DNA from: Myxococcota bacterium
GTDB taxonomy: Bacteria > Myxococcota_A > Bradymonadia > UBA7976 > UBA1532
Length of the DNA stretch: 64,000 nucleotides
Reading direction: 5' to 3'
Assembly (NCBI GenBank): GCA_036337435.1
Contig: JAYZEG010000008.1
Coordinates: 1 to 64,000, forward strand
Shown here: in pieces, positions 9,915 to 48,958 of the stretch
How positions within the stretch are numbered: position 1 is the first letter of the stretch
Layout: each line of letters begins with the position of its first letter
Translations under genes and position numbers: made by a program
The notes under the pieces: model-generated
Told to the model about the DNA's origin: nothing
What the model saw: only the letters and a program-made list of their open reading frames with translations
Databases searched by the model: none

Positions 9915-12900
9915 CTACTCAGCACGCTCGGGCATTGCCATGCCGGCGCGCCCATCAGCCAACTCGACCAGCTCAGTATCACAGCCTGCGCCGTCGACCA
10001 CTTTAAGAGTCCCCCGACCTTCTTCTCGGTCTATCGCGTATGCAATGACAGGATTTGAGGGTGCTCCTCCGAAACCACTGTCGAGATAAATAATTGGGTC
10101 CACGCTGACAACCAACTCGGAAGAGCGTCGCCGAAGCTGTGCGATACGACGCCAGCGCTTGAATTCTGTGTATTTTACTTTTTGCACCCCGTCGACGGAA
10201 TCGTCGTAATACAGCATATGAACAACATCACCGATGACAACGAGACTTGATGTGCGTATCTCTGAAGCCTCGAAACGACCCACGGATCGCCATTCTAAAG
10301 GCCCGACGTTCATGTCGTCATCAAGACTATAGCTCGCGTGAAATAAGCGAGGGTTTGCGTCCACGTCACCCAACACGCCGTTGAAGACAGCCGATACGGC
10401 AAGTTTGGTGGTATCCCCCCTCGTAAGGCCGAGGCTAAGCTGGGTCGCTTCAACCGGCTGGAACGCCAGGCCGCCGATTTCGGTCTCCGTATCGGTCCCA
10501 AACAACTCACATTGCATGTCCCCATTAAATGGAAACAACGTCAACCGCGACGCTCGCTCTGCAATATTTTGATTGGCCCCCGGATTGTTCGCCAATTGTT
10601 CTCTAAAATCAAAACCAGTGCCGATGACACCTTCGGCCATTTCATTGTCTGACGCGATCAGTGCCAGCCCAACACTCACAGGATAACGCTCCACATCTTC
10701 TGGCGCGATGTCTAAACGGGCGTATTTAGACCCTTGTAGCGGATCCCCGTCCGCTGCCAGCTCGCACTGCTGGCCCTGCCTTGGCCTAAGCGAAAGGTCT
10801 ACGTTGCCGAGTCCGGCCTCCGCTCTTTCCCGCAGCTGTTGTAATGGCAACTCGACAACGCGAAGGTCCGCCCGGACATCGGGGTCAACTGAGTAGGTGC
10901 CCACTAAAATCAACTTGCCGCCGGCGACCCGATGGGTTTTGACTGTAAAGCCCTCAAAATAAGTAGCTGCCGGCATGTAATCGGCGGTTTGGTTAAGGTC
11001 CATTGCCTCCGGCATGGTCACCCAGACTAGATCGAGCTGTGCCAATTGACCATCGGTGCCTTCACTTTGGGCGAGTAGAACATAGGCATTGTCGGCTACG
11101 TGGTAGAAACCCAGTAAACCATGAACGCCCACTTGCCCGTACCGGGTCAATGGGACACGGTTTACACGACCATCGGTGTAGGCGAACTCAATATCACCAC
11201 TTAAATTAGCACTGGCAAGCAACGGTTCCCCAGTCTGGCTGCCCTGAACGATCACACGACTGATCTGGCCATTAAAAAGGTCTCGTTCATCCCTCCATTG
11301 CACTTCATCCGCCTTGCCGTCACAGGTGTTATCCAATCCATCGCAATGTTCAGCTAAAGGCTCGCAGCCTCCGCATAAATTTTGGGTCTCTTCGGGACAA
11401 GGGTCTGGAACCGTCGGACTGACTCCGGGTACATCGTTGAACTGAATCCCATTATCTTCGATAAGTTCCGCCTGGCTATCGAAAAAGATACACCCATCAG
11501 CACCAGCCGACGCGATAAGCCCACGTTCGCGTAGACCACCAACGCGATTGCCAAAACCCGCGACATTGACCATGCAATTGCCCTGTATGGCGAGGTCTAC
11601 CGCATCCCGACTGGCGACAGTGTTGCCAACCAAAAGGACTTCTCCAACGCCCTGGTAGAATTGTTTGCGGCGCGTAGCACCACCGATTACAGCGGCAGCG
11701 GAATTAAGCCGGCCGCCGCCCGCTCGTCCGCCGGTCACTCTGTTTAAGGCAAGAGCACCGAATTGCCCAAACCCAACGTAGCCCCAGGCACCATCCAATC
11801 GACTGTCCACCACGTCGACGGCTGAGTCGACAATCACGAGACCTGCTCGGTCTGCGCCCTCAACAGCTGCATTTAAGATGGGCATTGTACGGTCCACGTA
11901 GGGCGCTTCATTACTTATCAAGCCGACCGAACTCACCTTAATCCCGATATCAACCCCACCCTGCACTCGAACATCTTTCAACTGTGACAGCGACACAAAG
12001 CTTGTGCCCGGCGATTGAATTGACGCCGAAGAAGACTGTTTCACAAGGACGCCAACCCTTGCATCCTCCAGCAAATCGCGAAAATTTGGATTTGCATTTT
12101 CCCCATGCCCATCGATGACAGGTTCAACCGAAAGAGCACCGGCCAAACTCGAACCTGCCGCAGCATGAGGTCGATTTTGCTGTTGTTCAGCCCCTGTCGA
12201 TGCAGCCTCATTGTCTGCAAGGGCCCCCCCGTCAACATCAATTCCATCGATAACGACGGGATGACCACTCAATTCAACGCCGCTGCCCGTAAAGCCTGAA
12301 AACGTGCTCGCTGAGAGGCTTTGCTGAGCCCAGCTATGCAATGACTCCTCTGGCAGAGCATCAGGGGACGAGGTCACCAAACCGTCGGGTAGCGGCCTAA
12401 AACTCGGCAACTCTGCATTGATTCGACTGGGCAACCATTCTCCCATTGGATAGCCCCCACTAAGTGTCTGCCATTCCCCCATTGGATACCACTCGCCCAT
12501 TGGGTACCACTCGCCCATCGGGTACCACTCGCCCATCGGGTAGACCTGAGGGTTCTCAGGGTCGTGTCGCATGCGGAAGACATTTGGTCTCTCGGACCAG
12601 GCTTCTGTCGGCGTAGGCCAATCCCATCCCGCCCCGATCCGCAATGAATCCCAATCGGCTTCCGGAAACACCAGGTCATCGTCAGTGTGCCCAAGACGGT
12701 TAAATTCAATGCCTACACGACAGCCCTGAGTACGAATACCGCTTAAGTGTCCACGCGAACTCAGACTTTTGACACAGGCACCACCTGCCTGATTCACGCT
12801 TAAGTTCGAGACTTTCCCAAAACTCTGACGCAACATGGCACCCGTCGCTTGCCTCGCATCGTCGTGGCCACTCACATCGTCAACACGAACGCGGTGGAGG

Positions 12901-13841
12901 CCATAAGCACTGTGGTTCAATTCAAACCCTGCGCCGATTAAATTGGAAAACTCAACGTCCTCCAAGACGACAAAGTTTGCGTAGGGACAAACAGGCGAAA
13001 TAAGACACTCGTCATCATCGTCTTCGTGGAAAGTCGCCACCAAACCGGCCCCTCCGTGGTCAGCAACAGTGCTTTTAAAAAAAGCGATACCGGAGCCACT
13101 CACCGATACCAATGGGTTGGGATTCTCTTCATGCCCGACGACCTCAGTGCGTATGAAACCCGCCGTGTTTACCCCGTGAAGGGACAGTGCTGGGTGGGTA
13201 CCCAAGCTTTTTAAACTCACACTGTACGCATGCAATTGACTCAGCCCATTGGCCTCGACGCCAATATGATTGCTACGAATCGTCAACCACCCCAACCACA
13301 CCTGCGCAGACGCAACTCCGTTGGCAAAGAGAGCCGGTTCGTCTCCGCCATTGATTTGGGTCAGATCGGTGCCTGCACCGTAAACAGCGAGGTCGTTTCG
13401 GACGACGATTGGACCCGCATACTGACCTGGGGCAACAAAAATTACGGCCGACCGGTCAGCGATGAAACTCATGGCCGCCGGTAAGTCACGAAACGGCGCA
13501 TCCAGGCTACCCACTCCACCTACATCGGCCGTCTCATCGACATACACCACGACTTGTTCTCTAAGATTCGCCCCCGCGTGCGCTGGAGTGCGAAAGCGAC
13601 GGACGACGTCATTTCGGTCAGGCCCGAGCAAGCTACTGGGGTTCGCACCTGTAGCGACCCGTTCATCGCCCATGTCTGCTCCGCCTTGGTCTGATACGAA
13701 AAGGTCACTCACCCCCCCATCCGAGGCATTCACAACAAGACTGCCGTCATCCATGTCGGAAACGACTGGGGATTGTCCGGAGTCATCGGCTCCGCAGCCG
13801 ATACTCATGAGCAGAGCAAATAAAGAGCAAAACAATCGCAT
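9915..13841 (-). CDS. Large secreted lipoprotein: DUF1565-like start, right-handed beta-helix, YPMGEW repeats, MopE-like metal-binding motif, beta-rich C-terminus
   Basis: Lipobox SIG-C; VYVD...GSLDAPF...IFVAPGQY; Gly/Val/Asn beta-helix pattern; EHCDGLDNTCDGKADE at about 11304-11351. Confidence 0.8.
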   Translation of the reverse strand: MRLFCSLFALLMSIGCGADDSGQSPVVSDMDDGSLVVNASDGGVSDLFVSDQGGADMGDERVATGANPSSLLGPDRNDVVRRFRTPAHAGANLREQVVVYVDETADVGGVGSLDAPFRDLPAAMSFIADRSAVIFVAPGQYAGPIVVRNDLAVYGAGTDLTQINGGDEPALFANGVASAQVWLGWLTIRSNHIGVEANGLSQLHAYSVSLKSLGTHPALSLHGVNTAGFIRTEVVGHEENPNPLVSVSGSGIAFFKSTVADHGGAGLVATFHEDDDDECLISPVCPYANFVVLEDVEFSNLIGAGFELNHSAYGLHRVRVDDVSGHDDARQATGAMLRQSFGKVSNLSVNQAGGACVKSLSSRGHLSGIRTQGCRVGIEFNRLGHTDDDLVFPEADWDSLRIGAGWDWPTPTEAWSERPNVFRMRHDPENPQVYPMGEWYPMGEWYPMGEWYPMGEWQTLSGGYPMGEWLPSRINAELPSFRPLPDGLVTSSPDALPEESLHSWAQQSLSASTFSGFTGSGVELSGHPVVIDGIDVDGGALADNEAASTGAEQQQNRPHAAAGSSLAGALSVEPVIDGHGENANPNFRDLLEDARVGVLVKQSSSASIQSPGTSFVSLSQLKDVRVQGGVDIGIKVSSVGLISNEAPYVDRTMPILNAAVEGADRAGLVIVDSAVDVVDSRLDGAWGYVGFGQFGALALNRVTGGRAGGGRLNSAAAVIGGATRRKQFYQGVGEVLLVGNTVASRDAVDLAIQGNCMVNVAGFGNRVGGLRERGLIASAGADGCIFFDSQAELIEDNGIQFNDVPGVSPTVPDPCPEETQNLCGGCEPLAEHCDGLDNTCDGKADEVQWRDERDLFNGQISRVIVQGSQTGEPLLASANLSGDIEFAYTDGRVNRVPLTRYGQVGVHGLLGFYHVADNAYVLLAQSEGTDGQLAQLDLVWVTMPEAMDLNQTADYMPAATYFEGFTVKTHRVAGGKLILVGTYSVDPDVRADLRVVELPLQQLRERAEAGLGNVDLSLRPRQGQQCELAADGDPLQGSKYARLDIAPEDVERYPVSVGLALIASDNEMAEGVIGTGFDFREQLANNPGANQNIAERASRLTLFPFNGDMQCELFGTDTETEIGGLAFQPVEATQLSLGLTRGDTTKLAVSAVFNGVLGDVDANPRLFHASYSLDDDMNVGPLEWRSVGRFEASEIRTSSLVVIGDVVHMLYYDDSVDGVQKVKYTEFKRWRRIAQLRRRSSELVVSVDPIIYLDSGFGGAPSNPVIAYAIDREEGRGTLKVVDGAGCDTELVELADGRAGMAMPERAE
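12435..12542 (-). repeat. In-frame 18-bp tandem repeat encoding YPMGEW (4 tandem copies + 1 after a QTLSGG spacer)
   Basis: Copies at 12525-12542, 12507-12524, 12489-12506, 12471-12488 and 12435-12452; all differences between copies are synonymous. Confidence 0.95.
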
Positions 13842-14630: not shown

Positions 14631-15536
14631 TCACGTTAAATCCCTAAAACTGGATTGGGCCTTTGATTCTCCTGAATAGCCCCCTGTCCGCCAAGCGACC
14701 AGGTCTCCGCCGATGACGACAGACGTCAGACCAACAAGAGCACCCAGGGCGGCCATCGCAAAGATTTTTATGTCCGACGAGTCATCATTCCCGCCCATGT
14801 AACCGCCGACCGTCAGAGCTAACGACGAAAGCCCCCATAACACGCCGTGAAAAGCGCCGACACGTACCGCCAATTTCAACACCCAATGTCGTTTTAACCC
14901 GATGCCATCTCGTCTGCGGCTTAGCCAAAAAAACAAAACAGCCCCCGCGAGCGCGCCAAAGCTCGAACTCACCGGCCCGACGTAACCCAACAGGCCGATT
15001 TGTAGACCCCCAACGACCAATAGACTGAAAGCAATAAACAGCGCCAGGACCAGCACTTCCCGAAATGATGGTGCACTCCCACCAGTCAACTGCCGAAAGC
15101 TACGGTCGACGACTTTGGCCAGGCGTGGTTCCCCATACATGCTCCCGATGATTTCTCTCGCTCGAGGCGATGAGGGGGGTGGCCATGCTTCATTTAACTT
15201 CATCAAACGCCTCGATTGAAGGTCACACAGATAATCTGTCACGCCATCGGTCAACACGATTTGGAGTGAATATTGTTGTGCACCCGCTTCCGGTGACATT
15301 CTGACAATGTCTCCGTGATAGATCCGTTTCTGATGCAGCTGCCGCCGCAATTGTACAACTTCACGGTCGTAAGCAATTGGATCCCCCGACCAGCCATACC
15401 CGTCTTTAGAAAAAAGAACAGTATCGCCGTATTCGCGCGAGTACCCGACCATCTTTCCGTCGTGATGTAGACGAGTCCATGGCTGCATCGCATGCACGTC
15501 GTACGGGTGTTGTCCCGGCGGAGAACTATTGGTCAT
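14631..15536 (-). CDS. YopX-like domain fused to a multi-TM membrane domain
   Basis: RIYHGDIV and EIIGSMYGEP resemble YopX IYEGDIV / EVIGNIYENP; about 4 hydrophobic helices in the C-terminal half. Confidence 0.65.
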   Translation of the reverse strand: MTNSSPPGQHPYDVHAMQPWTRLHHDGKMVGYSREYGDTVLFSKDGYGWSGDPIAYDREVVQLRRQLHQKRIYHGDIVRMSPEAGAQQYSLQIVLTDGVTDYLCDLQSRRLMKLNEAWPPPSSPRAREIIGSMYGEPRLAKVVDRSFRQLTGGSAPSFREVLVLALFIAFSLLVVGGLQIGLLGYVGPVSSSFGALAGAVLFFWLSRRRDGIGLKRHWVLKLAVRVGAFHGVLWGLSSLALTVGGYMGGNDDSSDIKIFAMAALGALVGLTSVVIGGDLVAWRTGGYSGESKAQSSFRDLT

Positions 15537-16230: not shown

Positions 16231-17097
16231 ATGCGTAATGCGTCCATTCTTCTGGTCCTGTCAGTTTGTGTGCTCAACGTCTGCTATGCGGATCGGAACT
16301 GGCCTCACGGTGAGGTGACCCGAGCGGAGGCACTTGTCTTCAACTTGGACTCCAGTCAGACTATGCGCAAACACATATATGATGGGCGGCACCTAGCGCC
16401 AACAGCCATCCCGAAGTTTTATCCTCTCGACGACAATCAACTCAAAGCCATAATGCGCTGGGTCGAGGCAGACGACGGTTTGCTTGAGAGGGGCTTATCC
16501 AAGTGTTTTGTCCCTCGCCATGGCTTTCTCTTTTACAATAAAAAAAACCAGGTGATCGCCTCACTCTCCGTTTGTTTCGAGTGCGAGGCGTTTCGTCGGT
16601 ACCCCGATATTAAAAAGGTCGTCGCCCCCCTTCGCCCCACGCCGTCCACGATAAAGGCGGCGATGGGTCGCTTACACGATCTGAAGGTGCTCACAGAGCA
16701 GATGGGCCTGCCTCACTTCAAGGCACCCTATAGAGCCAGCCGAGACCCCAACCATCAAGACATTACCAGTCAGCTCAGTGCGAAGATCATTGCAAGCAGA
16801 CAAGAGCTACAAGCCTGCTTAGGTTCAAACGATACTCTAGTGCCCCATGATGCGACTGTGGTTTGGTCCGCTGGTGCGACGACGGTCACACTCAGCCCGG
16901 CATCGGAGGCTGGCCGACGGTTAGACAAACTCGAGCGTCGTTGTCTCGTCAACCAACTCCAGGTTTTGGCAGGAGCTGTCTATCAACACCCGTTTTTACC
17001 GACCACCACCAGAATCACACTGACAGACGTATTCCCTTCGAAGTCGCATCGACCAGGTCTACCAGCAAACTCTCCGTCTAGTCCAGGCGGCCCGTAA
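16231..17097 (+). CDS. Secreted hypothetical protein with CFxPRH...CFEC motif
   Basis: SD GAGG; signal peptide ending CYA; KCFVPRHG and SVCFECE. Confidence 0.7.
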   Translation: MRNASILLVLSVCVLNVCYADRNWPHGEVTRAEALVFNLDSSQTMRKHIYDGRHLAPTAIPKFYPLDDNQLKAIMRWVEADDGLLERGLSKCFVPRHGFLFYNKKNQVIASLSVCFECEAFRRYPDIKKVVAPLRPTPSTIKAAMGRLHDLKVLTEQMGLPHFKAPYRASRDPNHQDITSQLSAKIIASRQELQACLGSNDTLVPHDATVVWSAGATTVTLSPASEAGRRLDKLERRCLVNQLQVLAGAVYQHPFLPTTTRITLTDVFPSKSHRPGLPANSPSSPGGP

Positions 17098-17111: not shown

Positions 17112-18092
17112 TTAATCGGCAACCGGCCAATGGAACCAGAGGGTAAAACATTGTTCAGAGACGTCCACACCAAACAGCTTCTCATCGAGTGCTCGTTGAG
17201 TGGACCAGGCATAAGCGCGCGAAGCAAAGTCAGCAACGACCTGAAGACCGATACCCGACCCCGTGGTGGAATAATTCGTCGTGAACAGGGGCGAATAATC
17301 ACCTGAGAATTTATTGTTCAAAACGGCACATTGCTCTGGACTGATGGGATTTGAGACCACGACTCGTAGATGTTGAGGATCCCGTTGACTATCCGTGTGC
17401 ATCGACAACGAGACGCGCTGACCATCACCGTCCAGCTCTCTCATGGCGTTGTTCATGCAGTTGTATAGGACTCGGTCCAGCGCCGAAAACTCGATGCAGC
17501 TTTCGGCGATGGCACCGTCGTATTCACAAAAAACGGCAACATCGCTTTCAAGCCGGCGCCATTTGTCTACGAGCAGCCGTACGGAGTGACTTTTTAACGC
17601 GACATCGGCTTTGTATTTGTCGCGATCGATGTCCGGGAAGCTATTGCGCATAATTTTGCAAACATCACGGGCGAGGAGAAAAACACGTGTTGGGTCAACA
17701 TCGTCTAGACGTCCGAGGGAGACCAAACTTAGGTCGAGCGCGAGTGAAGTCATGGGACCACCGCGCATGTCGTGAACGACTTTGCGCAAGGTTGAATTAG
17801 AGCCGAACTCGGCATAGGTATCCGGTCCGATGGCCGCCACATCACGCCTCAGTTGATTCCACGAGGTTTCCTGTAACCAACCCACCAGGGACTTAAAACT
17901 CGTATCTCGGTCTGTCACCGCCCAATCTTGCAAGCCCACCAATCGCAACACGGCCTCGTATAAATTAACGACGGCATCGCGGTCGTTTGAGGCAAGACGC
18001 TCGATGGACCACTGTAAACCGTCGCCACCATAACGCTGCTTTGGAAGATGGTTCGGCCAACGGGCCAAGCTCGCGCTCGTCGAGACATTCAT
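17112..18092 (-). CDS. Soluble atypical histidine kinase (H-box + HATPase_c), no recognisable sensor or TM domain
   Basis: H-box VVHDMRGG, N-box LYNCMNNAMR, G2-like FTTNYSTTGSGIGL; G1 box degenerate (VSNP). Start moved to ATG 18092 to avoid overlap with the upstream cryptochrome. Confidence 0.75.
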   Translation of the reverse strand: MNVSTSASLARWPNHLPKQRYGGDGLQWSIERLASNDRDAVVNLYEAVLRLVGLQDWAVTDRDTSFKSLVGWLQETSWNQLRRDVAAIGPDTYAEFGSNSTLRKVVHDMRGGPMTSLALDLSLVSLGRLDDVDPTRVFLLARDVCKIMRNSFPDIDRDKYKADVALKSHSVRLLVDKWRRLESDVAVFCEYDGAIAESCIEFSALDRVLYNCMNNAMRELDGDGQRVSLSMHTDSQRDPQHLRVVVSNPISPEQCAVLNNKFSGDYSPLFTTNYSTTGSGIGLQVVADFASRAYAWSTQRALDEKLFGVDVSEQCFTLWFHWPVAD

Positions 18093-18150
18093 GGGTATCC
18101 AACTCCAATCGAATTTAAGGGCCTGAAGGGGTCTGCCGGTGCGATGCGTC

Positions 18151-19551
18151 CTAGACGCGTTTCTTCCACGTTTTACGCGAGATCGGCCTCGGATATGCTT
18201 CGTCGAGGCGTACACCGAACGCACCCGTTTCGAGGCTACAATCCCTGCCATTCATTTCATGAATGGTTGGCGTAGGAAGCTTGGCGATTTCAGGCACCCA
18301 CTGACGTATGTATCGAGCCTGTTTATCGTAACGCATGGACTGCCGGCGAATGCTAAAGCGATGACTCAGGGGGCTCGGACTGACGCCCGCAGACCGCTGC
18401 CAATTGCCCATGTTGGAACACGGCTCGTGATCAACCAGTTGAGTTTCGAAATATTTAGCCCCGACCCGCCAGTCCTGTTCCAGGTCGCGAGAGAAAAAGC
18501 ACGCAACGTTTTGACGCCCGCGGAAGGTCATATACCCGGTCGCAGCAAGCTCTCGCATGTGAGCGTCGATGAAAGGCCACCCGGTCATCCCCTTGCACCA
18601 GCGCTCGAAAATATCTGGGTCAGAATCCCATTGAAGGTCCGTCGAATTGATTCCGCTGAGGTCGTACACAGCTTGCCCTTTTGCGAGAGCGACGAGGTGA
18701 AAGAATTCCCTTTGATACAACTCTTGTGTCAGCTCCCGCGTCGACCGGTTATAAACACGGGCCTTCTCATAGTTTTTCAGTTCATGAAAAACCTGTCGCG
18801 GTGATAGGGCACCGTGCGCCAAGTATGCCGACAACCTGGACGTGGCATTTTGGGCCAGAAGCTGGTCGCGCTTGCGTGCGTAGTCTCTGGCGTGGTCTCC
18901 CTCACGGAAAAACGTGGATAGGCGCTTCAGGCCTTGCGACGACCCTCCTTGGAGCCCGTTGAGAAGACTTCGGCTCTCCGTGGACTGAGCCTGTCCAAAG
19001 TCGCCCAGAGTGGGCAATGGCTCATAGGCCGCATCAATGCCCACCAACGTGGGCCGCGCAACGGGTTTTGGGGGTACGCCTTGAGCCGCTATTAGCTCTT
19101 GAAATTCACCGAACTGCCAAGGCGGGTCGCGCAGCTCGTCGGGCAGGGTTTCTGGGTCGAATAGGGTATCGCCCCAATGTTGACTGGTGGCAATCCCGTC
19201 CTGATGAAGCTGCGACACAACATCCTCCACCAAAGCACGGTGGGGGGCGGTATAACGACTGTGCAAAAACACTTCATCCGCCTTCGACTCCGAGGCAAAT
19301 TTTGGCAGAGCGACCTCGGGCCTGCCGTGCAGTACGAACAAATCGGACCCGGCTTCCACATACTGGTCGCGTAAGTCTTGCAATGTTTCGAGGCGAAAAG
19401 CTCGGGTCTTGGGGTTTAGCTCGGCCCATTCGGCGTGGTTGAAGCACACCACGGGCAATACATTGCCGTCGTAGTGCGCAGCTGCGGCAACAAGGGCGGG
19501 GTTATCGGCCAGTCGTAAGTCGTTCTGATGCCAGAGGATTGCCAAGCTCAT
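18151..19551 (-). CDS. Divergent cryptochrome/photolyase (DASH-like)
   Basis: WHQNDLRLADNPAL, TSRLSAYLAHGALSPR, GMTGWPFIDAHMREL, RGRQNVA, DWRVGA, GNW; start ATG 19551 (ORF extends to 19578). Confidence 0.9.
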   Translation of the reverse strand: MSLAILWHQNDLRLADNPALVAAAAHYDGNVLPVVCFNHAEWAELNPKTRAFRLETLQDLRDQYVEAGSDLFVLHGRPEVALPKFASESKADEVFLHSRYTAPHRALVEDVVSQLHQDGIATSQHWGDTLFDPETLPDELRDPPWQFGEFQELIAAQGVPPKPVARPTLVGIDAAYEPLPTLGDFGQAQSTESRSLLNGLQGGSSQGLKRLSTFFREGDHARDYARKRDQLLAQNATSRLSAYLAHGALSPRQVFHELKNYEKARVYNRSTRELTQELYQREFFHLVALAKGQAVYDLSGINSTDLQWDSDPDIFERWCKGMTGWPFIDAHMRELAATGYMTFRGRQNVACFFSRDLEQDWRVGAKYFETQLVDHEPCSNMGNWQRSAGVSPSPLSHRFSIRRQSMRYDKQARYIRQWVPEIAKLPTPTIHEMNGRDCSLETGAFGVRLDEAYPRPISRKTWKKRV

Positions 19552-19663
19552 GCTTGGTAGAGTATTGAACCCAGCCAAACGTTACTCTAAATACCGCAGC
19601 TTTTATCTAAAGTTTCCAGACACACGGTGAAGGGTGACAAGTGCAGCCGAGCAAACGTCGATT

Positions 19664-24480: not shown

Positions 24481-25845
24481 TTGAAGCGCGAAAAACTCAA
24501 CACGAACCATGTGGTCGTTTGGCATCGCACAGACCTGCGATTAGACGACAATTGGACACTGACAAAAGCAATCGAACTCGGCATCCCCCTCTGCGCCGTA
24601 TACATCATAGACCCGTTCTGGCTCGAGTCAGGTCTACAGGGGATTGAACGCTGCGGCTCCAAACGTTTTGGGGCACTCTTGGAATCACTCGCAGATTTGG
24701 CGGAACAATACCGTGCTGTCGGGCACGACTTAGTTGTCCGTGTGGGCGATACCGTGACTGAATTGGCTCGGATTGCAGCCGAGACCAACGCGAGTCACAT
24801 TTTTTTCACACGCGGCAAAACCACCTATGAGCGGCAGTTCGAAGACCGATTACAAGCTGCACTCGGTGATGAGCTGGAACTGGTTGGGCAATGGAATGAT
24901 GTTTTACTCAACCCGGATGTCGTCGCCGCTAATCCCATGGTCAGTTTAAAAACGTTCTCGAGATTCCGAAGGTCGGTCGAGGTCAATCTGAGCCTGCCGA
25001 GCCCTAGACCCGCGCCCAAAAAGTTAAATGCGAACCCTCTCGCGAAAACACAGGTACCACATCCAAATCAGTTTGGGCTCGAGGAATACTCCATTCACAG
25101 TGACTCACCCATCGCCGACCTCGACTTCGGTTCAACTGGGGCATTCAAACAGCTCGAACGATACCTATGGGACTCCGATTCCATTGCTCACTACAAGCAA
25201 ACCCGAAATGGAATGCTCCAATGGTCTGAGTCGAGTCGGCTATCAGTCTACCTAGCCTTTGGATGCATCTCGCCCATTCGACTTTTCCACGAGATCGACC
25301 GTTATGAACTAAATCGAACAAAGAACGAAAGCACCTACTGGCTCAAGTTTGAACTCCTGTGGCGGGAGTATTTTCATCATCTTGCATACAGCGTCGGAGC
25401 AAAATTGTTTCAACTCGGTGGAACCCAAGGTGTAAGCCGACGATGGCGAGGCGCTTGCGCCGACTTCGACGCCTGGTGCAAGGGTGAGACTGGGATACCA
25501 TTAATCGATGCCAATATGGTTGAGCTTAACGAGACCGGCTACATGTCAAACCGGGGCCGGCAAATCGTCGCGAGTTATCTCGCGAAGGAGTTGGGCATCG
25601 ATTGGCGGCTGGGTGCGGCTTGGTTCGAATGCCAACTCATAGACTATGACCCCTGCGTCAACTGGGGCAATTGGCAATATCAGGCTGGCGTCGGTGTCGA
25701 TGCAAAAGACCGCCGTTTCAATGTCCAACTGCAGGCAAAACGTTACGACGCACGGACGACCTACGTGCGACGATGGCTAGGCGAACGCTACACCAACGTA
25801 ACCAATGAGCAGCTGATCGCACTCAACGCCGCGCCACGGCCCTAG
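24481..25845 (+). CDS. cry: DASH-family cryptochrome/photolyase (canonical)
   Basis: WHRTDLRLDDN, YKQTRNGM, YWLKFELLWREYF, GYMSNRGRQIVASYL, LIDYDPCVNWGNWQYQAGVG. Confidence 0.93.
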   Translation: MKREKLNTNHVVVWHRTDLRLDDNWTLTKAIELGIPLCAVYIIDPFWLESGLQGIERCGSKRFGALLESLADLAEQYRAVGHDLVVRVGDTVTELARIAAETNASHIFFTRGKTTYERQFEDRLQAALGDELELVGQWNDVLLNPDVVAANPMVSLKTFSRFRRSVEVNLSLPSPRPAPKKLNANPLAKTQVPHPNQFGLEEYSIHSDSPIADLDFGSTGAFKQLERYLWDSDSIAHYKQTRNGMLQWSESSRLSVYLAFGCISPIRLFHEIDRYELNRTKNESTYWLKFELLWREYFHHLAYSVGAKLFQLGGTQGVSRRWRGACADFDAWCKGETGIPLIDANMVELNETGYMSNRGRQIVASYLAKELGIDWRLGAAWFECQLIDYDPCVNWGNWQYQAGVGVDAKDRRFNVQLQAKRYDARTTYVRRWLGERYTNVTNEQLIALNAAPRP

Positions 25846-41077: not shown

Positions 41078-41884
41078 ATGCCCGAAGGTCATACGATTCA
41101 TCGACTCGCGAGAGACCACAGTAAACCGTTTGAAGGACAAACCGTCGTCAGCACATCGCCTCAGGGCCGCTTCACCGAAGGAGCAGAGCGCCTCAACGGT
41201 CAGCGTGTAGACCGGGTTTTCGCCCATGGGAAACACCTTTTTTACCAATTCAGCAGCAGCCAACATGGCCCGCTTTACTGCCACGTGCACTTAGGCCTAT
41301 TCGGCCGTTTCAAAAAAATAAAAGCTCCGTTCGGTGACCCGAAACCGACGGTTCGTTGGCGTCTCACTACACGAACAGCGGGTTTCGACCTGACCGGGCC
41401 AAACTACTGCGAACTTCTGGATGAGCTCGCGGTGAGGCGGCTTCGGAATCGTTTGGGGCCAGACCCATTAGCATCGACTGACCAGGGAGAGGCGTTTGCG
41501 GCCAATATGGCGAAGACGCGTAGGGCCATTGGCGCAGTTCTACTCGACCAGGCGATGGTGTCTGGGGTTGGCAATATCTATCGGTGTGAGTTGCTATGGG
41601 CGCACGGCTTATCGCCCACCCAGCGAGCCTGTGACGTTGACTCAAAAGAGATCACGGCTCTTTGGACGACCATGCGGCGGTGGCTCAAAATTGGTGTCGA
41701 AACCAACAAAATTATCACAACGCTAGACGACGATGAGAGACCAGCAAAAGCATTGACACGGTCCGAACAGGTACGCATTTACAAAAAAGAGGTCTGCCCG
41801 AAATGCGAAAATCCAATCTCGATTAAGTCGATTGCACAACGAAAATTGTATTTTTGTCCCCAGTGTCAACGTGAATCAGACTAA
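41078..41884 (+). CDS. nei: Fpg/Nei DNA glycosylase (Nei-like)
   Basis: [23 protein letters not shown]2[19 protein letters not shown], Zn finger CPKC/CPQCQ. Confidence 0.95.
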
Positions 41885-42251
41885 ACATTGCCCAAGCTGC
41901 GGTCGGTCCTTCGAGTGGCGTAAAAAATGGGCGTCCAACTGGACTGAGGTTCGGTATTGCTCTGCCCTCTGTCGCCGTCAGCGACTTGAGCGTAGGGATA
42001 ACCACTTACACGAAATCATCCTGCGATTGCTTCACGCACAGCAGCCAAAAGACGGGTTAAAAGCATCTCAAATTGCCGACCATGCCTTCGGATCTCGAAA
42101 AGCGGCCGATTGTGAACGGGTGCTTCGTGCTGCGCGGCGACTGGCCCTCGACGCAAAAGTCATTTTCTTCGAGAACGCGAAGCGAGTCGATGCCACGCAT
42201 GCACGGCTCTCAGCCCAAATCAAGCTGAGTAGAGGGTCTGTTGATGTCTAG
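41871..42251 (+). CDS. DUF2256 + DUF3253 domain protein
   Basis: [16 protein letters not shown]...[10 protein letters not shown] followed by a wHTH-like RAARRLA segment; GTG 41871 overlaps the nei stop. Confidence 0.85.
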
Positions 42252-42666
42252 ACGCAGAAACCAGCTGATGCTGTTCTGTGCCGCCCACGATAAGACATTC
42301 GAGCTGGGCAGCCAACGCGACGCGGGCTGGCAAGGGAAGTGCATTCACTGCCAGCGTAAAGTGTTATTACGTCGAGACGGCAAGCCTCATTCTGGATCGA
42401 CATTAGAACATATCTGGCCTCGGTCGAAGGGAGGCAGCGACCACCCTGACAATCTGGCCATCGCGTGTAGCCGTTGCAATTCACAAAAGGGCCGAAAAAT
42501 CGACATCCTGGATAACGATGATCCTCGTTTGATCAAGGTCGTCAACTCATTGAAGAAGAGAAAATCGGACCGCCTAAGACACGATATAAACCATCTTCCC
42601 GCCGATCTCCTGTGGGTCATCACAAACCTGCTGCCAACCGCGCCAGACCCATTCAACGAGGCCTGA
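42244..42666 (+). CDS. HNH endonuclease
   Basis: CIHC...[12 protein letters not shown]...[14 protein letters not shown]; start overlaps the upstream stop. Confidence 0.9.
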
Positions 42667-43567
42667 GCGGACGCCCGCGATTCAGCCGTGGCCCTCGCCG
42701 CGGTGCCCGAATATCAGACCCGAAGATGATGCGCTGCACATACCAACGCTGGCCTCTCCAAGGGGCCAGAAGGTCAAACATACGAGCATCATCTGCCCTT
42801 TCTTCGTTGGCAAGAACCCAGGCAACCGTATGGGGCAATTGATAATCGCCGGTAATGACGACATCGGGGGTGTTCGTGGAGAAACCAAGGCAATGTTCAA
42901 TGGTCCAGTTTCCGATGCCAGGGATGGTTCGAAGGCGTCGTGACAACGACGTTTCATCGTCACCCACCCACCCATCAAGTCGGTTACCGAGCCGCGCTAA
43001 CTCGCGGACCACTGCCGCTCTTTTGAGAGACAGGCCACACGCTTGTAAGTGACCTAAAGGATGCCTCTGGATATCCTCAAAGCTCGGGGGGCAGTACAAA
43101 CCGTTCGGGGCCACTTGGGAACCGAACTTTAAAACCCATTGGCGCCATATTTTGGCAGCATCCCGCCATTCGATGAGCTGTTGGAAAACCGTCCGAATCA
43201 AGTCGTACCCAAGGGAGACACTCACGCCTAAATGAAGGCCGGGCAGCTTTCTCGATAAGCGTTCAAGGGTGGGATGGCCAGTGACCCGTAATGGAGCGCG
43301 GTGTAGACCAAATAATGCCTCAATCGTCTGCCTATCAAATAGCGTTCCAGCGCTGATCACATCGACCGACAAGCGCGTCTTGTCTCGTGTGGCGTCGATG
43401 ACGGTTATGGCCCCATCAAAGTGGGTTACTTTCACAAAACGATCATTGGACAAGGTTTGCGTAGGATCCCACTGACCAAAGCGCCCGAAGCGCATGGTGC
43501 CGAACAAGTCATAATGCTCGGGAAGCTCGAAATTATAGCTGGCTTGATTTTTCATAACTGTTTGCAT
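42653..43567 (-). CDS. AlkA-like HhH-GPD DNA-3-methyladenine glycosylase family protein
   Basis: LRTIPGIGNWT (HhH), PDVVITGDYQLP, DDARMFDLLAPWRGQR. Confidence 0.85.
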   Translation of the reverse strand: MQTVMKNQASYNFELPEHYDLFGTMRFGRFGQWDPTQTLSNDRFVKVTHFDGAITVIDATRDKTRLSVDVISAGTLFDRQTIEALFGLHRAPLRVTGHPTLERLSRKLPGLHLGVSVSLGYDLIRTVFQQLIEWRDAAKIWRQWVLKFGSQVAPNGLYCPPSFEDIQRHPLGHLQACGLSLKRAAVVRELARLGNRLDGWVGDDETSLSRRLRTIPGIGNWTIEHCLGFSTNTPDVVITGDYQLPHTVAWVLANEERADDARMFDLLAPWRGQRWYVQRIIFGSDIRAPRRGPRLNRGRPLRPR

Positions 43568-43710
43568 AGCCCAGGATAATGATACGCTTCAATCAGAGAC
43601 GTTACGGCCCAAATGACAACGCAATCAATCACGACACCGGGCCTAGGAGAAATCTTCAAATATGGGCGGCTTTTGAATCTGGTCGCCCGTCATGTGTATC
43701 TGGACAAGAG

Positions 43711-46700
43711 ATGCAGGATTATCAATTTCATTCCATCACCAAAACATGGTTCGCCGAATGTTTTAATTCGCCGACACCAGCGCAAGACGGTGCGTGGAAG
43801 GCAATCGCCAATGGCAACTCAACGCTTCTGATGGCCCCAACGGGCTCCGGTAAAACCCTTGCCGCATTTCTGTACGCCTTGGACCGGATGATGTTCTCCT
43901 CGGCCGATGGGGTCGATCGAGGGCGCATCCTGTATATCTCACCGATCAAAGCCCTGGCGGTCGACGTCGAGCGCAACCTTCGGTCACCACTCACCGGATT
44001 GGCCACGGTTGCCAGCCGAAAGGGACAATCGGTCAACCCGATTCAGGTGGGGGTGCGAACAGGCGACACTTCGCAAAGAGACCGTCTCGCCATGGTCAAA
44101 AACCCGCCAGACATCCTGATCACGACGCCCGAATCGCTGTATTTGATGCTTACCTCGAAGGCTGCCTCAATTCTTGAGGCCGTCGATACCATCATCATCG
44201 ATGAGATTCATGCCATCGCCGGCAGTAAACGGGGCACCCATCTATTTTTGAGTCTCGAAAGGCTTGAGGCTCTCACGGAGGGTGAACATACGATTCAGCG
44301 AATCGGGTTATCTGCAACGCAGAGGCCACTCGATGAGGTTGCCCAACTTCTGGGAGGCTTTCAGAGGGTCGATGGCCAACTCCGTCCTCGGCCCGTCGAG
44401 ATCGTCGATGTGAAAGAACGCAAGTCACTCCAGCTGTCGATCGAGGTGCCGACCGCGGATATGGTGACTCTTGACGATATCGACTTTGAATCCGAGACCT
44501 TTGAATCCCCCGACGTCGGAGTCACATCGGCTGGCCAGGCCAAATCTATCTGGCCGATTCTATACCCTAAGATCATTGACAAAATTCGAGCCCATCGAAC
44601 CACTCTGATTTTCGTTAATTCCCGGCGAACGGCAGAACGTTTGGCCAATGCCATTAACGACGTAGCGAAAGAAGACCTTGCCCGTGCACATCACGGGTCC
44701 TTAGCGCATGCCGTCCGAATGGATATCGAAGACCAACTTAAACGCGGCCTACTGCCGGCGATCGTGGCGACGGCATCCCTTGAATTAGGCATTGATATGG
44801 GAGCTGTTGATCTGGTGATTCAGGTTGAATCTCCACCGTCGATCGCGTCGGGATTGCAGCGAATCGGACGAGCCCAGCACCATGTAGGCGGTGTACCTAT
44901 CGGGGTCACATATCCCAAATTCCGTGCTGACCTAATCCCATGCGCGACGGCCCACAGTGCAATGCTTCGAGGGGCAATCGAGGCAACTCGGTATCTTCGC
45001 AATCCGCTGGATGTTTTGGCTCAACAAATCGTCGCCATCATCAGCATGCATGACCATTCGGTCGATACTCTGTTCGAACTCATCCAAGGTGCAGCGCCCT
45101 ACGCAGAGCTTTCGAAAGGGCTTTTCGAATCGGTCTTAGACATGCTCAGCGGCCGGTACCCATCAGACGATTTTAGTGACCTCCGGCCTCGGATTACTTG
45201 GGATAGGCTGACCGGTCAATTAACGGCCAGAAAAGGTGCAAAACGACTGGCCATTCTGAACGGCGGCACCATTCCAGAACGCGGTTTGTACGGCGTTTTC
45301 CTCCTTGGCGATGAAGCCGGACGGAGTCGCCGTGTTGGTGAGCTCGACGAAGAAATGGTTTTCGAATCGCGGGTCGGCGAGGTCTTCTTGCTCGGTGCCA
45401 GTTCTTGGCGCATTGAAGAAATCACGCATGAGAAAGTGCTGGTCACGCCGGCCCCTGGAGAACCCGGAAAAATGCCGTTTTGGCATGGCGATAGACCTGG
45501 TCGTCCATACGAATTTGGGCTAGAAGTCGGCGGTTTCCTTCGGATGCTTGATGAGCTCAACTCTACAGAGACTGACTCGCAACCACTGCAGACTGAGTAT
45601 ACCCTCGATTCCAATGCTCGACTCAATTTGCTGAATTATGTAGGTGAGCAGCGGGAGCACTCGGCTGTTCCCACAGACAAAAGACTGGTTCTGGAACGTT
45701 TTGTCGATGAGCTCGGCGATTGGCGAGTCTGTCTGCTGAGCCCGTTCGGTGGACGAGTTCATGCACCATGGGCAATGGCTGTGCGAACGAAGTTGATGGA
45801 CGAGTACCAACTCGAACTGGACGCCGTTTGGTCAGACGATGGCATTGTCTTTCGCTTGCCATTTGGTGAGGACCCGCCTGACGCGCAGCTTTTCTTTCCC
45901 AGCCCCGAGGACGTCGAACCGCTCTTGATCAGACGATTGGCTGAATCCGCGCTATTTGCGGCGCGTTTTCGAGAAAATGCAGGTCGCGCGTTGCTGCTAC
46001 CGAAGAAAAAACCGGGGGGACGAACGCCCCTATGGGCAATCCGACGCCGTGCTGCGTCGCTCCTGTCTGTGGCCGCTCGATTCAATGACTTCCCCATCAT
46101 TCTGGAAACGTATCGGGAGTGTTTGCGAGACCAGTTCGAGATCGAATCCCTGCAAGACGTTCTACGAAAAATTGAGAACCGGCACATTAAAGTTGTCGAC
46201 ATTCAAAGCGACACGCCATCGCCTTTTTCGACATCGTTGATGTTCGAGTACGTCGCGAATTTTATGTACGAAGGCGACGCACCACTGGCCGAGCGTAGAG
46301 CACATGCCTTAACCATAGACCAAAGTCGATTACGCGAATTATTGGGCACCTCCGCACTGAGAGAGTTATTGGCCATTGAGGCCATCGAAGAGCTGAACGC
46401 GGTTCTCCAGCGTCTCGATACCAAACTCAAGGCAGAGGATGATCTCCATGACCTCCTTCTCTCCCTCGGGCCACAATTTCGTGAGGAGATCGAGGCAAGG
46501 ACGGCTGACACTGCCAATGCCAGCGAATTGATTGCCACATTGATACGCCATCGACGGATTATTGACGTCGTCATCGGTGGACATAGACGGCTGGCTGCTG
46601 CCGAAGACAGTGCGCGTCTTCGAGATGCCCTTGGAACGGTCATTCCACCAGGTTTACCGTCTTCCTTTCTTGAGCCGGTGGCAGACCCAATGGGAGACTT

Positions 46701-48195
46701 GGTTTCTCGATACGCTCGACGTCGTGGCCCCTTTACTGCAAGACAACTCGCCAGTCACTATGGCTTAGGGTTGTCTGTAGCGCAGACCGCCCTGCAACCG
46801 TTGATTGCCCGAGGACGTATCATCGAAGGCGAGTTTCTCCCCGGGTCTCAGGGCACAGAGTATTGTGATGCCGACGTGCTCAAGCGTTTAAAGCGTCTGT
46901 CATTGGCCCGGCTCAGAGCCGATATAAAATCTGTTGAACACTCGGTTTTCTCGCGTTTTACACTCGCATGGCACGGACTGGACCAAAAGCAAAGAGGGCC
47001 GGACGCACTGCTCGACGTCGTCGATCAGCTACAGGGGGCTCCCCTGCCCGCGTCCGTGCTCGAGAGCGATATTCTGTCGGTTCGATTACATGATTACCAG
47101 CCGTCCGACTTGGACCAATTATTAGCCCACGGAGAGGTGGTTTGGGTTGGCCTCCGGTCTACGGGTGTCCGAGATGGTCGTATTGCCTTGTTTACCATGG
47201 CTCATCTCGATCTTTTAGCCCCTGTCCCCACGCCATTGGATGGGGAGATCTATGATGAGGTCAGACGAGTTCTGAACGAACGCGGGGCTCTCTTTTTTAA
47301 ACAACTGAGTGGTTTGGTCGGCGGATTTCCGGAACGCCTACTAGAAGCCGTCTGGGACTTGGTTTGGAACGGAGAGGTCAGCAACGATTCATTGGTGCCA
47401 TTGAGACGCATGGTCCGCCCCCCCCAAGAGCTGAAAAAACAACGCCGACGCGCCTATCGACTCCGACCAAGTCGTCATCACAGCTTGCCGGGCTCCGAGG
47501 GTCGCTGGTGGCTGGTCGATGAGCGGCGGTCGAACGCGCCAAATCAAACGGATCGGCGTATGGCCTTGGCCCAACAACTACTCGAACGCCACGGCATTAT
47601 CACCCGTGAAGCCGCAGCGTCAGAACAACTGGACGGCGGTTTTTCGAGTGTTTATCCGGTGTTTAAGGCACTTGAGGAGAGCGGTCGGATTCGACGGGGC
47701 TACTTTGTCGAAGGTTTGGGTCTAACTCAGTTTGCGGTGCCCGGTGCCGATGACCAACTGCGACAAGGTCGGACGAGCGATACTGAGAGCTCCGTTTTAT
47801 TACTGGCAACCACCGACCCAGCTAACCCCTTTGGCGCCGCATTACCCTGGCCCGATGATTTTAGTGGGCGCCCGGAGCGGTCCCCTGGGTCCAGGGTTGC
47901 GATCATGGGCGGACGACCAATCGCTTTCATCAGTCGCTCTGGGCGGAGTCTACACACGCGGTTTTCCCAGGACATCATCGAACGCCGTGTGGAGGTCCAG
48001 GGTCTGTGTCAAGCACTCCGTGACTTCGCGCAAATCAACCGCATAAAGGTCATCTATATAGAGCAAATCAATGGCGAGCTCGCGAGAGACTCGAGTTTAA
48101 CATCAGAGTTTATTGAACATGGGTTCCGCCCCACGGGCGATGCGATTCGACTCACCACAAGTAGACAAGCAGGTCCGACTGATGCCCGAGGGTGA
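43711..48195 (+). CDS. lhr: Lhr ATP-dependent helicase (full length with C-terminal domain)
   Basis: APTGSGKT, DEIH, GLSATQRP, HHGSL, SLELGIDMG, QRIGRA, GELDEEMVFESR, C-terminal RRGYFVEGLG..QFA and DPANPFG; likely start ATG 43711 (ORF extends to 43579). Confidence 0.96.
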   Translation: MQDYQFHSITKTWFAECFNSPTPAQDGAWKAIANGNSTLLMAPTGSGKTLAAFLYALDRMMFSSADGVDRGRILYISPIKALAVDVERNLRSPLTGLATVASRKGQSVNPIQVGVRTGDTSQRDRLAMVKNPPDILITTPESLYLMLTSKAASILEAVDTIIIDEIHAIAGSKRGTHLFLSLERLEALTEGEHTIQRIGLSATQRPLDEVAQLLGGFQRVDGQLRPRPVEIVDVKERKSLQLSIEVPTADMVTLDDIDFESETFESPDVGVTSAGQAKSIWPILYPKIIDKIRAHRTTLIFVNSRRTAERLANAINDVAKEDLARAHHGSLAHAVRMDIEDQLKRGLLPAIVATASLELGIDMGAVDLVIQVESPPSIASGLQRIGRAQHHVGGVPIGVTYPKFRADLIPCATAHSAMLRGAIEATRYLRNPLDVLAQQIVAIISMHDHSVDTLFELIQGAAPYAELSKGLFESVLDMLSGRYPSDDFSDLRPRITWDRLTGQLTARKGAKRLAILNGGTIPERGLYGVFLLGDEAGRSRRVGELDEEMVFESRVGEVFLLGASSWRIEEITHEKVLVTPAPGEPGKMPFWHGDRPGRPYEFGLEVGGFLRMLDELNSTETDSQPLQTEYTLDSNARLNLLNYVGEQREHSAVPTDKRLVLERFVDELGDWRVCLLSPFGGRVHAPWAMAVRTKLMDEYQLELDAVWSDDGIVFRLPFGEDPPDAQLFFPSPEDVEPLLIRRLAESALFAARFRENAGRALLLPKKKPGGRTPLWAIRRRAASLLSVAARFNDFPIILETYRECLRDQFEIESLQDVLRKIENRHIKVVDIQSDTPSPFSTSLMFEYVANFMYEGDAPLAERRAHALTIDQSRLRELLGTSALRELLAIEAIEELNAVLQRLDTKLKAEDDLHDLLLSLGPQFREEIEARTADTANASELIATLIRHRRIIDVVIGGHRRLAAAEDSARLRDALGTVIPPGLPSSFLEPVADPMGDLVSRYARRRGPFTARQLASHYGLGLSVAQTALQPLIARGRIIEGEFLPGSQGTEYCDADVLKRLKRLSLARLRADIKSVEHSVFSRFTLAWHGLDQKQRGPDALLDVVDQLQGAPLPASVLESDILSVRLHDYQPSDLDQLLAHGEVVWVGLRSTGVRDGRIALFTMAHLDLLAPVPTPLDGEIYDEVRRVLNERGALFFKQLSGLVGGFPERLLEAVWDLVWNGEVSNDSLVPLRRMVRPPQELKKQRRRAYRLRPSRHHSLPGSEGRWWLVDERRSNAPNQTDRRMALAQQLLERHGIITREAAASEQLDGGFSSVYPVFKALEESGRIRRGYFVEGLGLTQFAVPGADDQLRQGRTSDTESSVLLLATTDPANPFGAALPWPDDFSGRPERSPGSRVAIMGGRPIAFISRSGRSLHTRFSQDIIERRVEVQGLCQALRDFAQINRIKVIYIEQINGELARDSSLTSEFIEHGFRPTGDAIRLTTSRQAGPTDARG

Positions 48196-48958
48196 CTCCA
48201 TTCATCGACTGGCCAATCGCTTCAATACCCAATGCGAGGGCAGCAAAATCTGCAAGGTCACAGCTCGCCAAGTGCATCGCTCTGACCGACTCTTAGGCGC
48301 GGGCGTGTTGACAACCGAAGCCTTGGGAAAACACCTTTTAATCCATCTTGATAACGACCATATCATTCATACACACCTGGGCCGTGAGGGCCGCTGGATC
48401 TTTAAGCGAACCCAGGAACTGAGGCGCGCCTCAAACGGCCTGAGACTGCGATTGGTGTTCAAAAACATCACAGCAGATTGCTTAGATCCACGGACCATTG
48501 AGGTCTTGACTCATGATGAGTTGAGACGCCATCAACTCCTCGGAGGACTGGGTCCAGATATTTTGTCCCAGTCCACAGATTGGGCACAGATTTATGAGCG
48601 AATCAAACGAAAGCAGCCGATGAGTGTGGCTGATATGCTCTTAGACCAAAGCATCTGTTCAGGAATCGGCAATGTTTATAAATCCGAGGTTCTTTTCTTA
48701 GAGCAACGGCATCCATTGACAGCCCCATCGGCCCTCCAAGCCACGGAGATCAAAGCTCTCTACCAACGCGCGCGGCGTCTCATGCGGCGGAACCTCGGAG
48801 CGAACCCCAGACGGACCCGTTGGGCCGATGGACCCAAACTGTGGGTATATAATCGCAACAAAGCCCCCTGCCTGGTGTGCGGTACGCTCATCGGCCGGTT
48901 CAGACAGGGCCAACCACCGCGGTCCACTTATCTCTGCCGGACCTGCCAAAGCCATTGA
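48182..48958 (+). CDS. nei: Fpg/Nei DNA glycosylase (Nei2-like, lhr-linked)
   Basis: MPEGDSIHRLA, GKHLL, LLDQSICSGIGNVYKSE, Zn finger CLVC/CRTCQ; overlaps the lhr stop. Confidence 0.95.
   Translation: MPEGDSIHRLANRFNTQCEGSKICKVTARQVHRSDRLLGAGVLTTEALGKHLLIHLDNDHIIHTHLGREGRWIFKRTQELRRASNGLRLRLVFKNITADCLDPRTIEVLTHDELRRHQLLGGLGPDILSQSTDWAQIYERIKRKQPMSVADMLLDQSICSGIGNVYKSEVLFLEQRHPLTAPSALQATEIKALYQRARRLMRRNLGANPRRTRWADGPKLWVYNRNKAPCLVCGTLIGRFRQGQPPRSTYLCRTCQSH

Follow-up and report, generated by a model that had tools for sequence, protein, structure and literature searches.

A conserved, predicted repair-deficient DASH-family cryptochrome next to an orphan histidine kinase from a family with repeated photolyase associations

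A divergent cryptochrome gene and an orphan kinase gene

The analyzed window, a 64,000-nucleotide stretch of a Myxococcota bacterium (positions 1-64000 of contig C8, 78.6 kb, of genome G000, 4.38 Mb and 87% complete), contained a gene for a divergent DASH-family cryptochrome (P0001), followed on the same strand by a gene for an orphan cytoplasmic histidine kinase-like protein (P0002). Overall, the analysis revealed a conserved DASH offshoot predicted to be repair-deficient and an uncharacterized kinase family with repeated photolyase association, both of which are real and new. The kinase family is widespread, undescribed and unnamed, and spans several phyla. With slightly less than even confidence, we favor the reading that the two proteins, a repair-deficient photoreceptor and an orphan kinase, belong to one light or photo-oxidative stress pathway. 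Since members of the kinase family are found beside photolyases of three dissimilar classes as well as without any, a shared pathway is more economical than a fixed contact. The features concerned are listed below, L059 being the contig of a relative and P0127 a related cryptochrome.

18151..19551, minus strand: divergent DASH-family cryptochrome P0001, 466 aa (TIGR02765, structure model, site table, selection)
17112..18092, minus strand: orphan cytoplasmic histidine kinase-like protein P0002, 326 aa (PF02518, alignments, structure model, fold matches)
18093..18150, minus strand: 58-bp spacer between cryptochrome and kinase genes, with a GGAG ribosome-binding-like motif also present in L059
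19558..19589, strand unspecified: inverted repeat (7-bp arms, 18-bp spacer) that stops 7 bases short of the cryptochrome ATG
24481..25845, plus strand: canonical CRY-DASH paralogue with an intact lesion pocket, used for comparison only and not sister to the divergent copy
16231..17097, plus strand: rapidly evolving gene that matches no known family, lies convergent to the kinase gene and closes the cryptochrome-kinase unit
14631..15536, minus strand: 301-aa gene of no known family, with a homologue directly after the cryptochrome in P0127, making it the second conserved neighbor of the cryptochrome

Residues and fold of the cryptochrome

P0001 matched TIGR02765 with 348.1 bits (cut-off 317.05), compared to 427 for the 24481 paralogue, 351.4 for P0124 and 333.3 for P0194. 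Its model (predicted local distance difference test, pLDDT, 92.4) had the two-domain photolyase fold and was closest to DASH structures, with template modeling (TM) scores of 0.92 to 6kii and 0.90 to 1np7. Residues were mapped by counting on an alignment with the Arabidopsis cry3 chain. The Trp chain was kept (cry3 W356/W409/W432 = W308/W361/W384), as were the flavin-site equivalents of cry3 R394, D422, N428 and E325 (R346, D374, N380 and E277), in line with the FAD-region and Trp positions that an earlier sequence-only reading of this DNA had listed as retained. Whereas family profile, fold and flavin/Trp residues place P0001 among DASH proteins at the sequence level, it lacked both an intact pocket for cyclobutane pyrimidine dimers (CPD) and the glutamate for methenyltetrahydrofolate (MTHF). 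The lesion pocket kept E277 and R344 but carried Q280 (cry3 W328), F343 (N391) and R386 (Y434), so that its two aromatic walls and its Asn were lost, and the folate-antenna residue E149 was replaced by H104. Further changes were cry3 Y423 to H375 and Y429 to M381; the roles of these two tyrosines, like the Escherichia coli photolyase numbers W277, W384, W306, W359 and W382, are assumed here.

Among 213 other DASH-like proteins, position 280 was W in 197 and Q in one, position 343 was N in 200 and F in none, position 386 was R in one, and position 381 was W or Y in 209 and M in none, while position 104 was E in 199 of 205 and never H. All four motif changes that had been reported relative to the 24481 paralogue were present and rare beyond drift, except that the Tyr-to-His part of DYD to DHE, although present, was not diagnostic (H at position 375 in 43 of the 213 proteins). 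All three pocket sites were changed in 7 of 212 other, unrelated rows, so pocket loss also occurred elsewhere.

The CPD pocket given for DsNewPHL comprises E81/W84, N151, W169 and W192/W194, with two Trp forming the lesion wedge and Glu and Asn as hydrogen-bond partners (PMC7736829), and the residue spacings of P0001 fit those given for it. NewCRY was proposed to be signaling-only on two grounds, one of them the missing N341 equivalent (PMC7736829), and cry3 E149 is described as essential for MTHF binding (PMC4831468). With flavin and Trp residues kept and DNA-lesion residues lost, P0001 is likely a blue-light sensor, more precisely a repair-deficient, antenna-less receptor, and the repair deficiency predicted earlier agrees with the replacement of pocket residues beside a retained flavin site.

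Conservation and phylogeny of the cryptochrome

The L059 relative carried the whole block from the canonical DASH gene through the 14631 gene, and silent sites between G000 and L059 were saturated (proportion of silent differences, pS, 0.74-0.88 over seven genes). At this distance, the divergent cryptochrome was still 83.3% identical (90.2% in the FAD domain, residues 201-466), compared to 64.3% for the canonical DASH protein (72.4% in the FAD domain), and the kinase was 86.8% identical (96.7% in residues 101-220). Judging by these values, the cryptochrome is under strong purifying selection. Pseudogene decay was ruled out by such identity despite saturated silent sites, and the protein is not "degenerate", as it had been called, in the sense of decay.

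Cryptochrome homologues were searched among 5.8 billion and 1.84 billion proteins, with the best 7,996 candidates scored and the best 150 of 9,738 matches listed. Among these, a small clade was found, including P0124, P0125, P0126/P0194, P0127, the frameshifted P0128 and the distant P0200. Six rows formed one clade with a support of 99 and a stem of 0.62 (FastTree), so that the tree proposed as a check by the sequence-only reading set P0001 apart while grouping it with DASH-like rows. The clade was not sister to the 24481 paralogue, and recent duplication from this paralogue was not seen in the tree. Its members shared a conserved C-terminal segment (P0001 residues ~424-445). Q280 and R386 were found in 6/6 intact close rows and F343 in 5/6, while R346, D374, N380, W384, W361, W318, W308 and E277 were found in 6/6 where covered; deviating pockets were observed in P0127 (N343/V344) and P0200 (W280/Q343/D344/V386).

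Clade-specific patterns recovered L059 alone among metagenome contigs and G000 alone among 28 family and 113 class genomes, and a P0200 query recovered G000 alone among 401 phylum genomes at E 1e-60. In the three congeneric genomes, including one with 100% completeness, neither the cryptochrome nor the kinase gene was found. A further DASH-like group whose pocket motifs are altered was observed in the same order (L010 in G028, P0239, P0245, P0270), and such pocket changes may have evolved repeatedly among DASH proteins of the class.

The kinase and its family

P0002 consisted of an N-terminal helical region of ~100 residues, His107 in an HDxRGG motif within dimerization and histidine phosphotransfer (DHp)-like helices, and a GHKL ATP-binding domain in which the N, F and G2 boxes were kept and Asn248 stood at G1. 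Its model (pLDDT 94.3) had helices at 100-125 and 134-151, consistent with a phospho-acceptor His in a helical dimerization region, and its fold matches were mostly histidine kinases (GHKL fold, Z 14.6, root-mean-square deviation 2.5, 135 aligned). HATPase_c (PF02518) was the sole Pfam match of P0002 and was found in 46/46 family members; no HisKA profile match, no NCBIfam family at cut-off and no known input domain were found in P0002, as expected from its earlier description as a kinase with no recognizable input domain. In the Atlas, the matches were HATPase clusters without a name and, at 0.95, one HisKin-conflict cluster. The absence of a response regulator from the window also held for the whole 78.6-kb contig, on which no receiver domain was found, and 24 were above cut-off on other contigs.

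Family members have ~330 residues. The search, which covered forms of up to 571 residues, gave 158 matches, the best 120 of which included Chloroflexota, Myxococcota and others. H107, D108, R142, D143, K146, R149, H169, C199, E201, R207, Y210, N211, N215, A216, N248, G280 and G282 were invariant in 117/117 members. The G1 box that had been noted as atypical is therefore so across the family, with Asn248 in place of the Asp and no GxG of the canonical DxGxG. As CusS (7zp0) also has Asn at the aligned G1 position, we infer that this box need not mean inactivity. In L042 and L049, long reading frames stood open upstream of the kinase relatives; these were interpreted as artefacts of high GC content and not as sensor domains.

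A DUF255 thioredoxin-domain gene adjoined the kinase gene in L040 and in L053/L055, in two arrangements; although labeled with different phyla, the latter two loci are almost identical, and one of the labels may be a binning error. Speculatively, this recurring neighbor and the invariant C199 and H169 hint that the kinase itself may sense redox state.

Photolyase genes beside members of the kinase family

The neighborhoods of 38 kinase-family loci were inspected with DASH, class III-like, FeS-BCP and class II queries. These were the 42 loci collected minus three duplicates (L042=L083, L047=L100, L039=L082) and L059, the weak matches L057 and L058 having been dropped before counting; as 23/38 loci had ≥2 kb on both sides, adjacency counts are lower bounds. 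A photolyase-family gene lay within ~1 kb at 4/38 loci, representing three independent events, and all belonged to classes other than DASH (FeS-BCP or class II). In G092 and G094, from one genus, the kinase stop overlapped the FeS-BCP start by 4 nt. In G287, an FeS-BCP gene converged from one gene away, ~1 kb from the kinase, and in G567 a class II photolyase-oxidoreductase fusion ended ~50-70 bp upstream of the kinase on the same strand. Two of the three events were same-strand and within 70 bp. Under uniform chance, P(≥3 of 38) was ~5e-4, with a per-locus chance of 0.004 derived from G000. The linked kinases fell in four separate subclades, each with unlinked sisters, and their monophyly was rejected by the approximately unbiased (AU) test on 23 rows (p-AU 1.8e-35). 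PF04244 was found in 8/10 kinase-bearing genomes compared to 99/401 of the phylum sample (hypergeometric 3e-4; kin not independent). The three further adjacencies lend independent support to a light or ultraviolet-stress link of the kinase family. They support the light-linked kinase suggested earlier, but not a dedicated conserved pair, given the many unlinked loci, the differing partner classes and P0127 (see below).

Within the linked neighborhoods, a Ser/Thr kinase-AAA-TPR gene stood upstream of the kinase-FeS-BCP overlap in G092 (L069:6526-9155) and G094 (L071:6806-9629). The G567 locus (L101:3758-7960) was a same-strand run of a small Cys-containing open reading frame (ORF), which we take to be DUF2256-like, the class II photolyase-flavin oxidoreductase fusion, the kinase and a 123-aa receiver-like ORF. 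In the latter, the acceptor Asp seems missing and no Pfam match was found; homologues follow the kinase in L100 and L080.

Several points weigh against a common light or photo-oxidative stress pathway. The chance model presupposes uniform placement and takes no account of accessory-gene clustering, and the genomes are related. In addition, the initial DASH-only screens gave no photolyase near 22 + 4 kinase loci; the FeS-BCP and class II genes were found later, when this negative result had led to an extension of the test to the whole superfamily. Because of the uniform-placement assumption and the widened query set, the P value was taken as moderate evidence. No photolyase neighbor was present at 34/38 loci, nor beside the nearest sister of each linked kinase, and all four linked loci were among the 21 Myxococcota or deltaproteobacterial loci, with 0/17 elsewhere. 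The G084 genome (one contig, 96% complete) possessed the kinase and had no PF04244 or PF03441 match. The exact cryptochrome-kinase pair was conserved only in L059, which shares the whole block and is thus not independent evidence. The cryptochrome frame of P0127, whose FAD domain is 71% identical, enters a homologue of the 14631 gene (E 3e-43) within ~35 residues, leaving no room for a kinase; we infer that a frameshift joined two neighboring genes there. The synteny check suggested earlier thus recovered the pair in L059, a relative syntenic throughout, but no kinase directly after the cryptochrome of P0127. Some nucleic-acid binding by P0001 is possible, as E277 and R344 are kept. Finally, autophosphorylation and phosphotransfer by the kinase, and FAD binding, photocycle and repair status of P0001, are predictions from sequence and fold.

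Proposed mechanism and alternative explanations

In the favored pathway, P0001 would bind FAD and be photoreduced by blue light via its Trp chain, would not repair pyrimidine dimers and would carry no antenna, while its remodeled pocket and C-terminal segment would act as a partner-binding surface. The kinase, which keeps its phospho-His and ATP-binding boxes, would autophosphorylate and pass the phosphate to a receiver encoded elsewhere. The two proteins would be tied by shared expression and pathway, not by obligatory one-to-one contact. A prediction of the P0001 + P0002 complex, run without controls, scored 0.00 and was used neither for nor against.

A dedicated two-protein light sensor, in which the photoreduced cryptochrome binds the kinase, switches its autophosphorylation and acts as its missing input domain, was considered rather unlikely. 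Such a sensor would suit a kinase without known input domain and a cryptochrome whose surface is remodeled and strongly conserved, and CryB-AppA is a case of a bacterial cryptochrome signaling by protein contact (PMC3401432). The two genes are adjacent in G000 and L059, and, in a third lineage, homologues of both, as well as of the 14631 gene, were all recorded on contigs with a length of 852,541 bases, which suggests one contig, not adjacency. However, the other linked partners are of two quite different classes, for which one shared interface seems unlikely, the G084 kinase occurs without any photolyase match, and P0127 lacks a kinase directly downstream. Moreover, among the matches listed (best 120 of 158), no kinase was found on the contigs of 10,884 (P0194), 20,515 (P0127) and 28,982 (P0200) bases, which is an indirect proxy. 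A bolder proposal is similarly doubtful: here the cryptochrome, having abandoned DNA repair, would serve the kinase as its stand-alone input for blue light, forming a cryptochrome-driven two-component system, with an undescribed kinase family recruited to three photolyase classes at least four times in Myxococcota.

It is also unlikely that the genes are neighbors by chance, with each protein acting alone. In this scenario, insertion of a mobile orphan kinase and of the convergent gene would have separated the cryptochrome from the 14631 gene. The neighbors of the kinase family were mostly unrelated from locus to locus, both genes were missing from the three congeneric genomes, P0127 shows the cryptochrome-14631 order without the kinase, and the recurrence of the DUF255 gene beside the kinase indicates that recurrences happen. 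Against this stand the three further independent photolyase adjacencies, two of them tight and same-strand, the co-occurrence of the kinase with PF04244, and the persistence of the pair across saturated silent divergence in L059.

Least probable among these is a non-photoreceptor flavoprotein repurposed for RNA, DNA, another lesion or a small ligand without any tie to the kinase: the FAD domain is more basic (K+R 41, D+E 30 in 266 aa) than that of the canonical DASH protein (30, 26 in 239 aa), Arg is new at 272 and 386 beside the kept E277 and R344, pocket residues vary among clade members (P0127, P0200), and the PDB search included a photolyase-like chain in 7pua (presumably an RNA-binding mitoribosome assembly factor), but all intact clade rows retain N380 and the complete Trp chain, which fits continued photoreduction.

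Gene layout and transcription

Both ORFs, their common strand and the 58-bp gap were as the sequence-only reading had described, and the gap was 58-60 bp in the window and L059. The open frame of the kinase reaches 18251, while its homologues begin at the Met at 18092, which is preceded by GGAG in both the window and L059. No terminator-like site was found in the 18093-18150 spacer. The convergent gene (16231-17097) was 45.6% identical to its L059 orthologue.

Both arms of the inverted repeat at 19558-19589 were identical in L059, and the repeat was a single exact copy in the genome; a genome-wide search for a regulon of this motif found none. It is a probable promoter or operator, and the cryptochrome and kinase genes are probably co-transcribed from a promoter at this conserved site. 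Its downstream arm contained a TANNNT hexamer 7 bases before the ATG, with no ribosome-binding motif evident, a spacing that suggests a leaderless cryptochrome transcript and was mildly enriched before ATG codons across the genome. An RNA hairpin at the repeat was unsupported in the window (z 0.08), although the L059 counterpart folds (z -5.7). In RNA runs (shares 0.05-0.09), short contigs were ~96-100% identical over parts of the cryptochrome (two studies) and of the kinase (one study); no contig from these runs, in which DNA carry-over is possible, bridged the two genes.

The 14631-15536 gene belongs to a small family (14 matches), whose proteins are soluble in their N-terminal part and hydrophobic in their C-terminal part. 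The gene's proximity to the divergent cryptochrome is maintained in L059 and P0127 as well as in the window, which makes it a further candidate partner. Elsewhere in the window, two Fpg/Nei glycosylase genes, an HhH-GPD glycosylase and an Lhr helicase formed a DNA-repair cluster (41078-48958), ~20 kb from both cryptochromes. In a 1308-aa protein that looks secreted (9915-13841), a short peptide, YPMGEW, was repeated in tandem (~five units) and a MopE-type metal-binding motif was weakly recognizable; no family match was found at cut-off.

Other light and repair genes in the genome

Four other photolyase-family genes were found in G000, encoding the canonical DASH protein, an FeS-BCP, a NewCRY-like protein and a class II photolyase, so repair looks covered. 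The class II photolyase gene (L102:928-9970, contig C11) was directly downstream of a MerR + B12-binding regulator, CarH-like but below the NCBIfam cut-off, and near an extracytoplasmic function (ECF) sigma factor, a DUF523/DUF1722 gene and a flavin oxidoreductase; these genes are likely a B12-based light regulon. On contig C83 (L103:2160-5386), the FeS-BCP gene overlapped the NewCRY-like gene, whose product carries Arg in place of E274 and Phe in place of N341. As this Phe is the same as F343 of the DASH-derived P0001, it looks convergent. No BLUF match was found in the genome, and neither was a rhodopsin in a search run without positive control.

Significance

The signal output of bacterial cryptochromes, and of CRY-DASH especially, is largely open, the worked-out bacterial case found being CryB-AppA, and this locus offers a DASH protein predicted to be naturally repair-deficient under strong selection. 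LOV domains, bilin photoreceptors and rhodopsins are inputs of histidine kinases. If control is direct, cryptochrome would join them and provide a new optogenetic part; if not, the association would be a first functional lead, to light or photo-oxidative stress, for a multi-phylum kinase family without a curated family beyond HATPase_c at cut-off.

Comparison with known systems

In the literature searched (few subscription papers, without supplements), no description was found of the kinase family or of a pair formed by a bacterial cryptochrome and a stand-alone histidine kinase; sequence-network supplements could contain the clade. The CRY-DASH proteins of Synechocystis (1np7), Arthrospira (6kii) and Arabidopsis (cry3, 2j4d/2vtb) were the best sequence and fold matches of P0001 and have its flavin and Trp residues in common. 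Compared with them, P0001 has a replaced pocket, MTHF glutamate and Y423/Y429 equivalents, and belongs to a long-stemmed clade of its own (support 99). CPD repair in single-stranded DNA and an MTHF cofactor are features of DASH proteins (PMC7736829), whereas P0001 is predicted to have neither.

The NewCRY proteins (VcCry2 type) are bacterial, lack the E274 and N341 equivalents, were proposed to be signaling-only and stand beside repair-competent photolyases (PMC7736829). Like these proteins, P0001 is bacterial, has lost the N341 equivalent and occurs in a genome holding other photolyase-family genes. Unlike them, it is DASH-derived and keeps the E274 equivalent (E277), so that only one of the two residues is lost, and it grouped with DASH-like rows, away from the NewCRY-like C83 protein (FastTree, long branches).

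CryB of Rhodobacter sphaeroides, an FeS-BCP, alters gene expression via light-dependent protein contact with AppA (PMC3401432). FeS-BCP genes likewise adjoin the kinase family in G092, G094 and G287, but CryB belongs to another class than P0001 and its partner is AppA, not a histidine kinase.

Cryptochrome-phytochrome couples are described in eukaryotes, including the dualchrome DUC1 (PMC8209157) and Aspergillus CryA-FphA (PMC12887071; see also PMC8591175). The DUC1 figure legend names a histidine kinase domain among the domains drawn (PMC8209157), and CryA is predicted, with low confidence, to contact FphA's PAS and GAF domains (PMC12887071). The couples differ from the present pair in being eukaryotic and in that the partner is itself a bilin photoreceptor, whereas P0002 has no chromophore domain.

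No canonical receiver was found among the kinase-family neighbors scanned. P0002 has the GHKL fold, the upstream helical His and the N, F and G2 boxes in common with class I sensor histidine kinases (WalK 3sl2, ThkA 3a0t, CusS 7zp0). It differs from these in having neither a HisKA match nor a known input domain, and is marked by its HDxRGG H-box and the invariant H169, C199 and E201.

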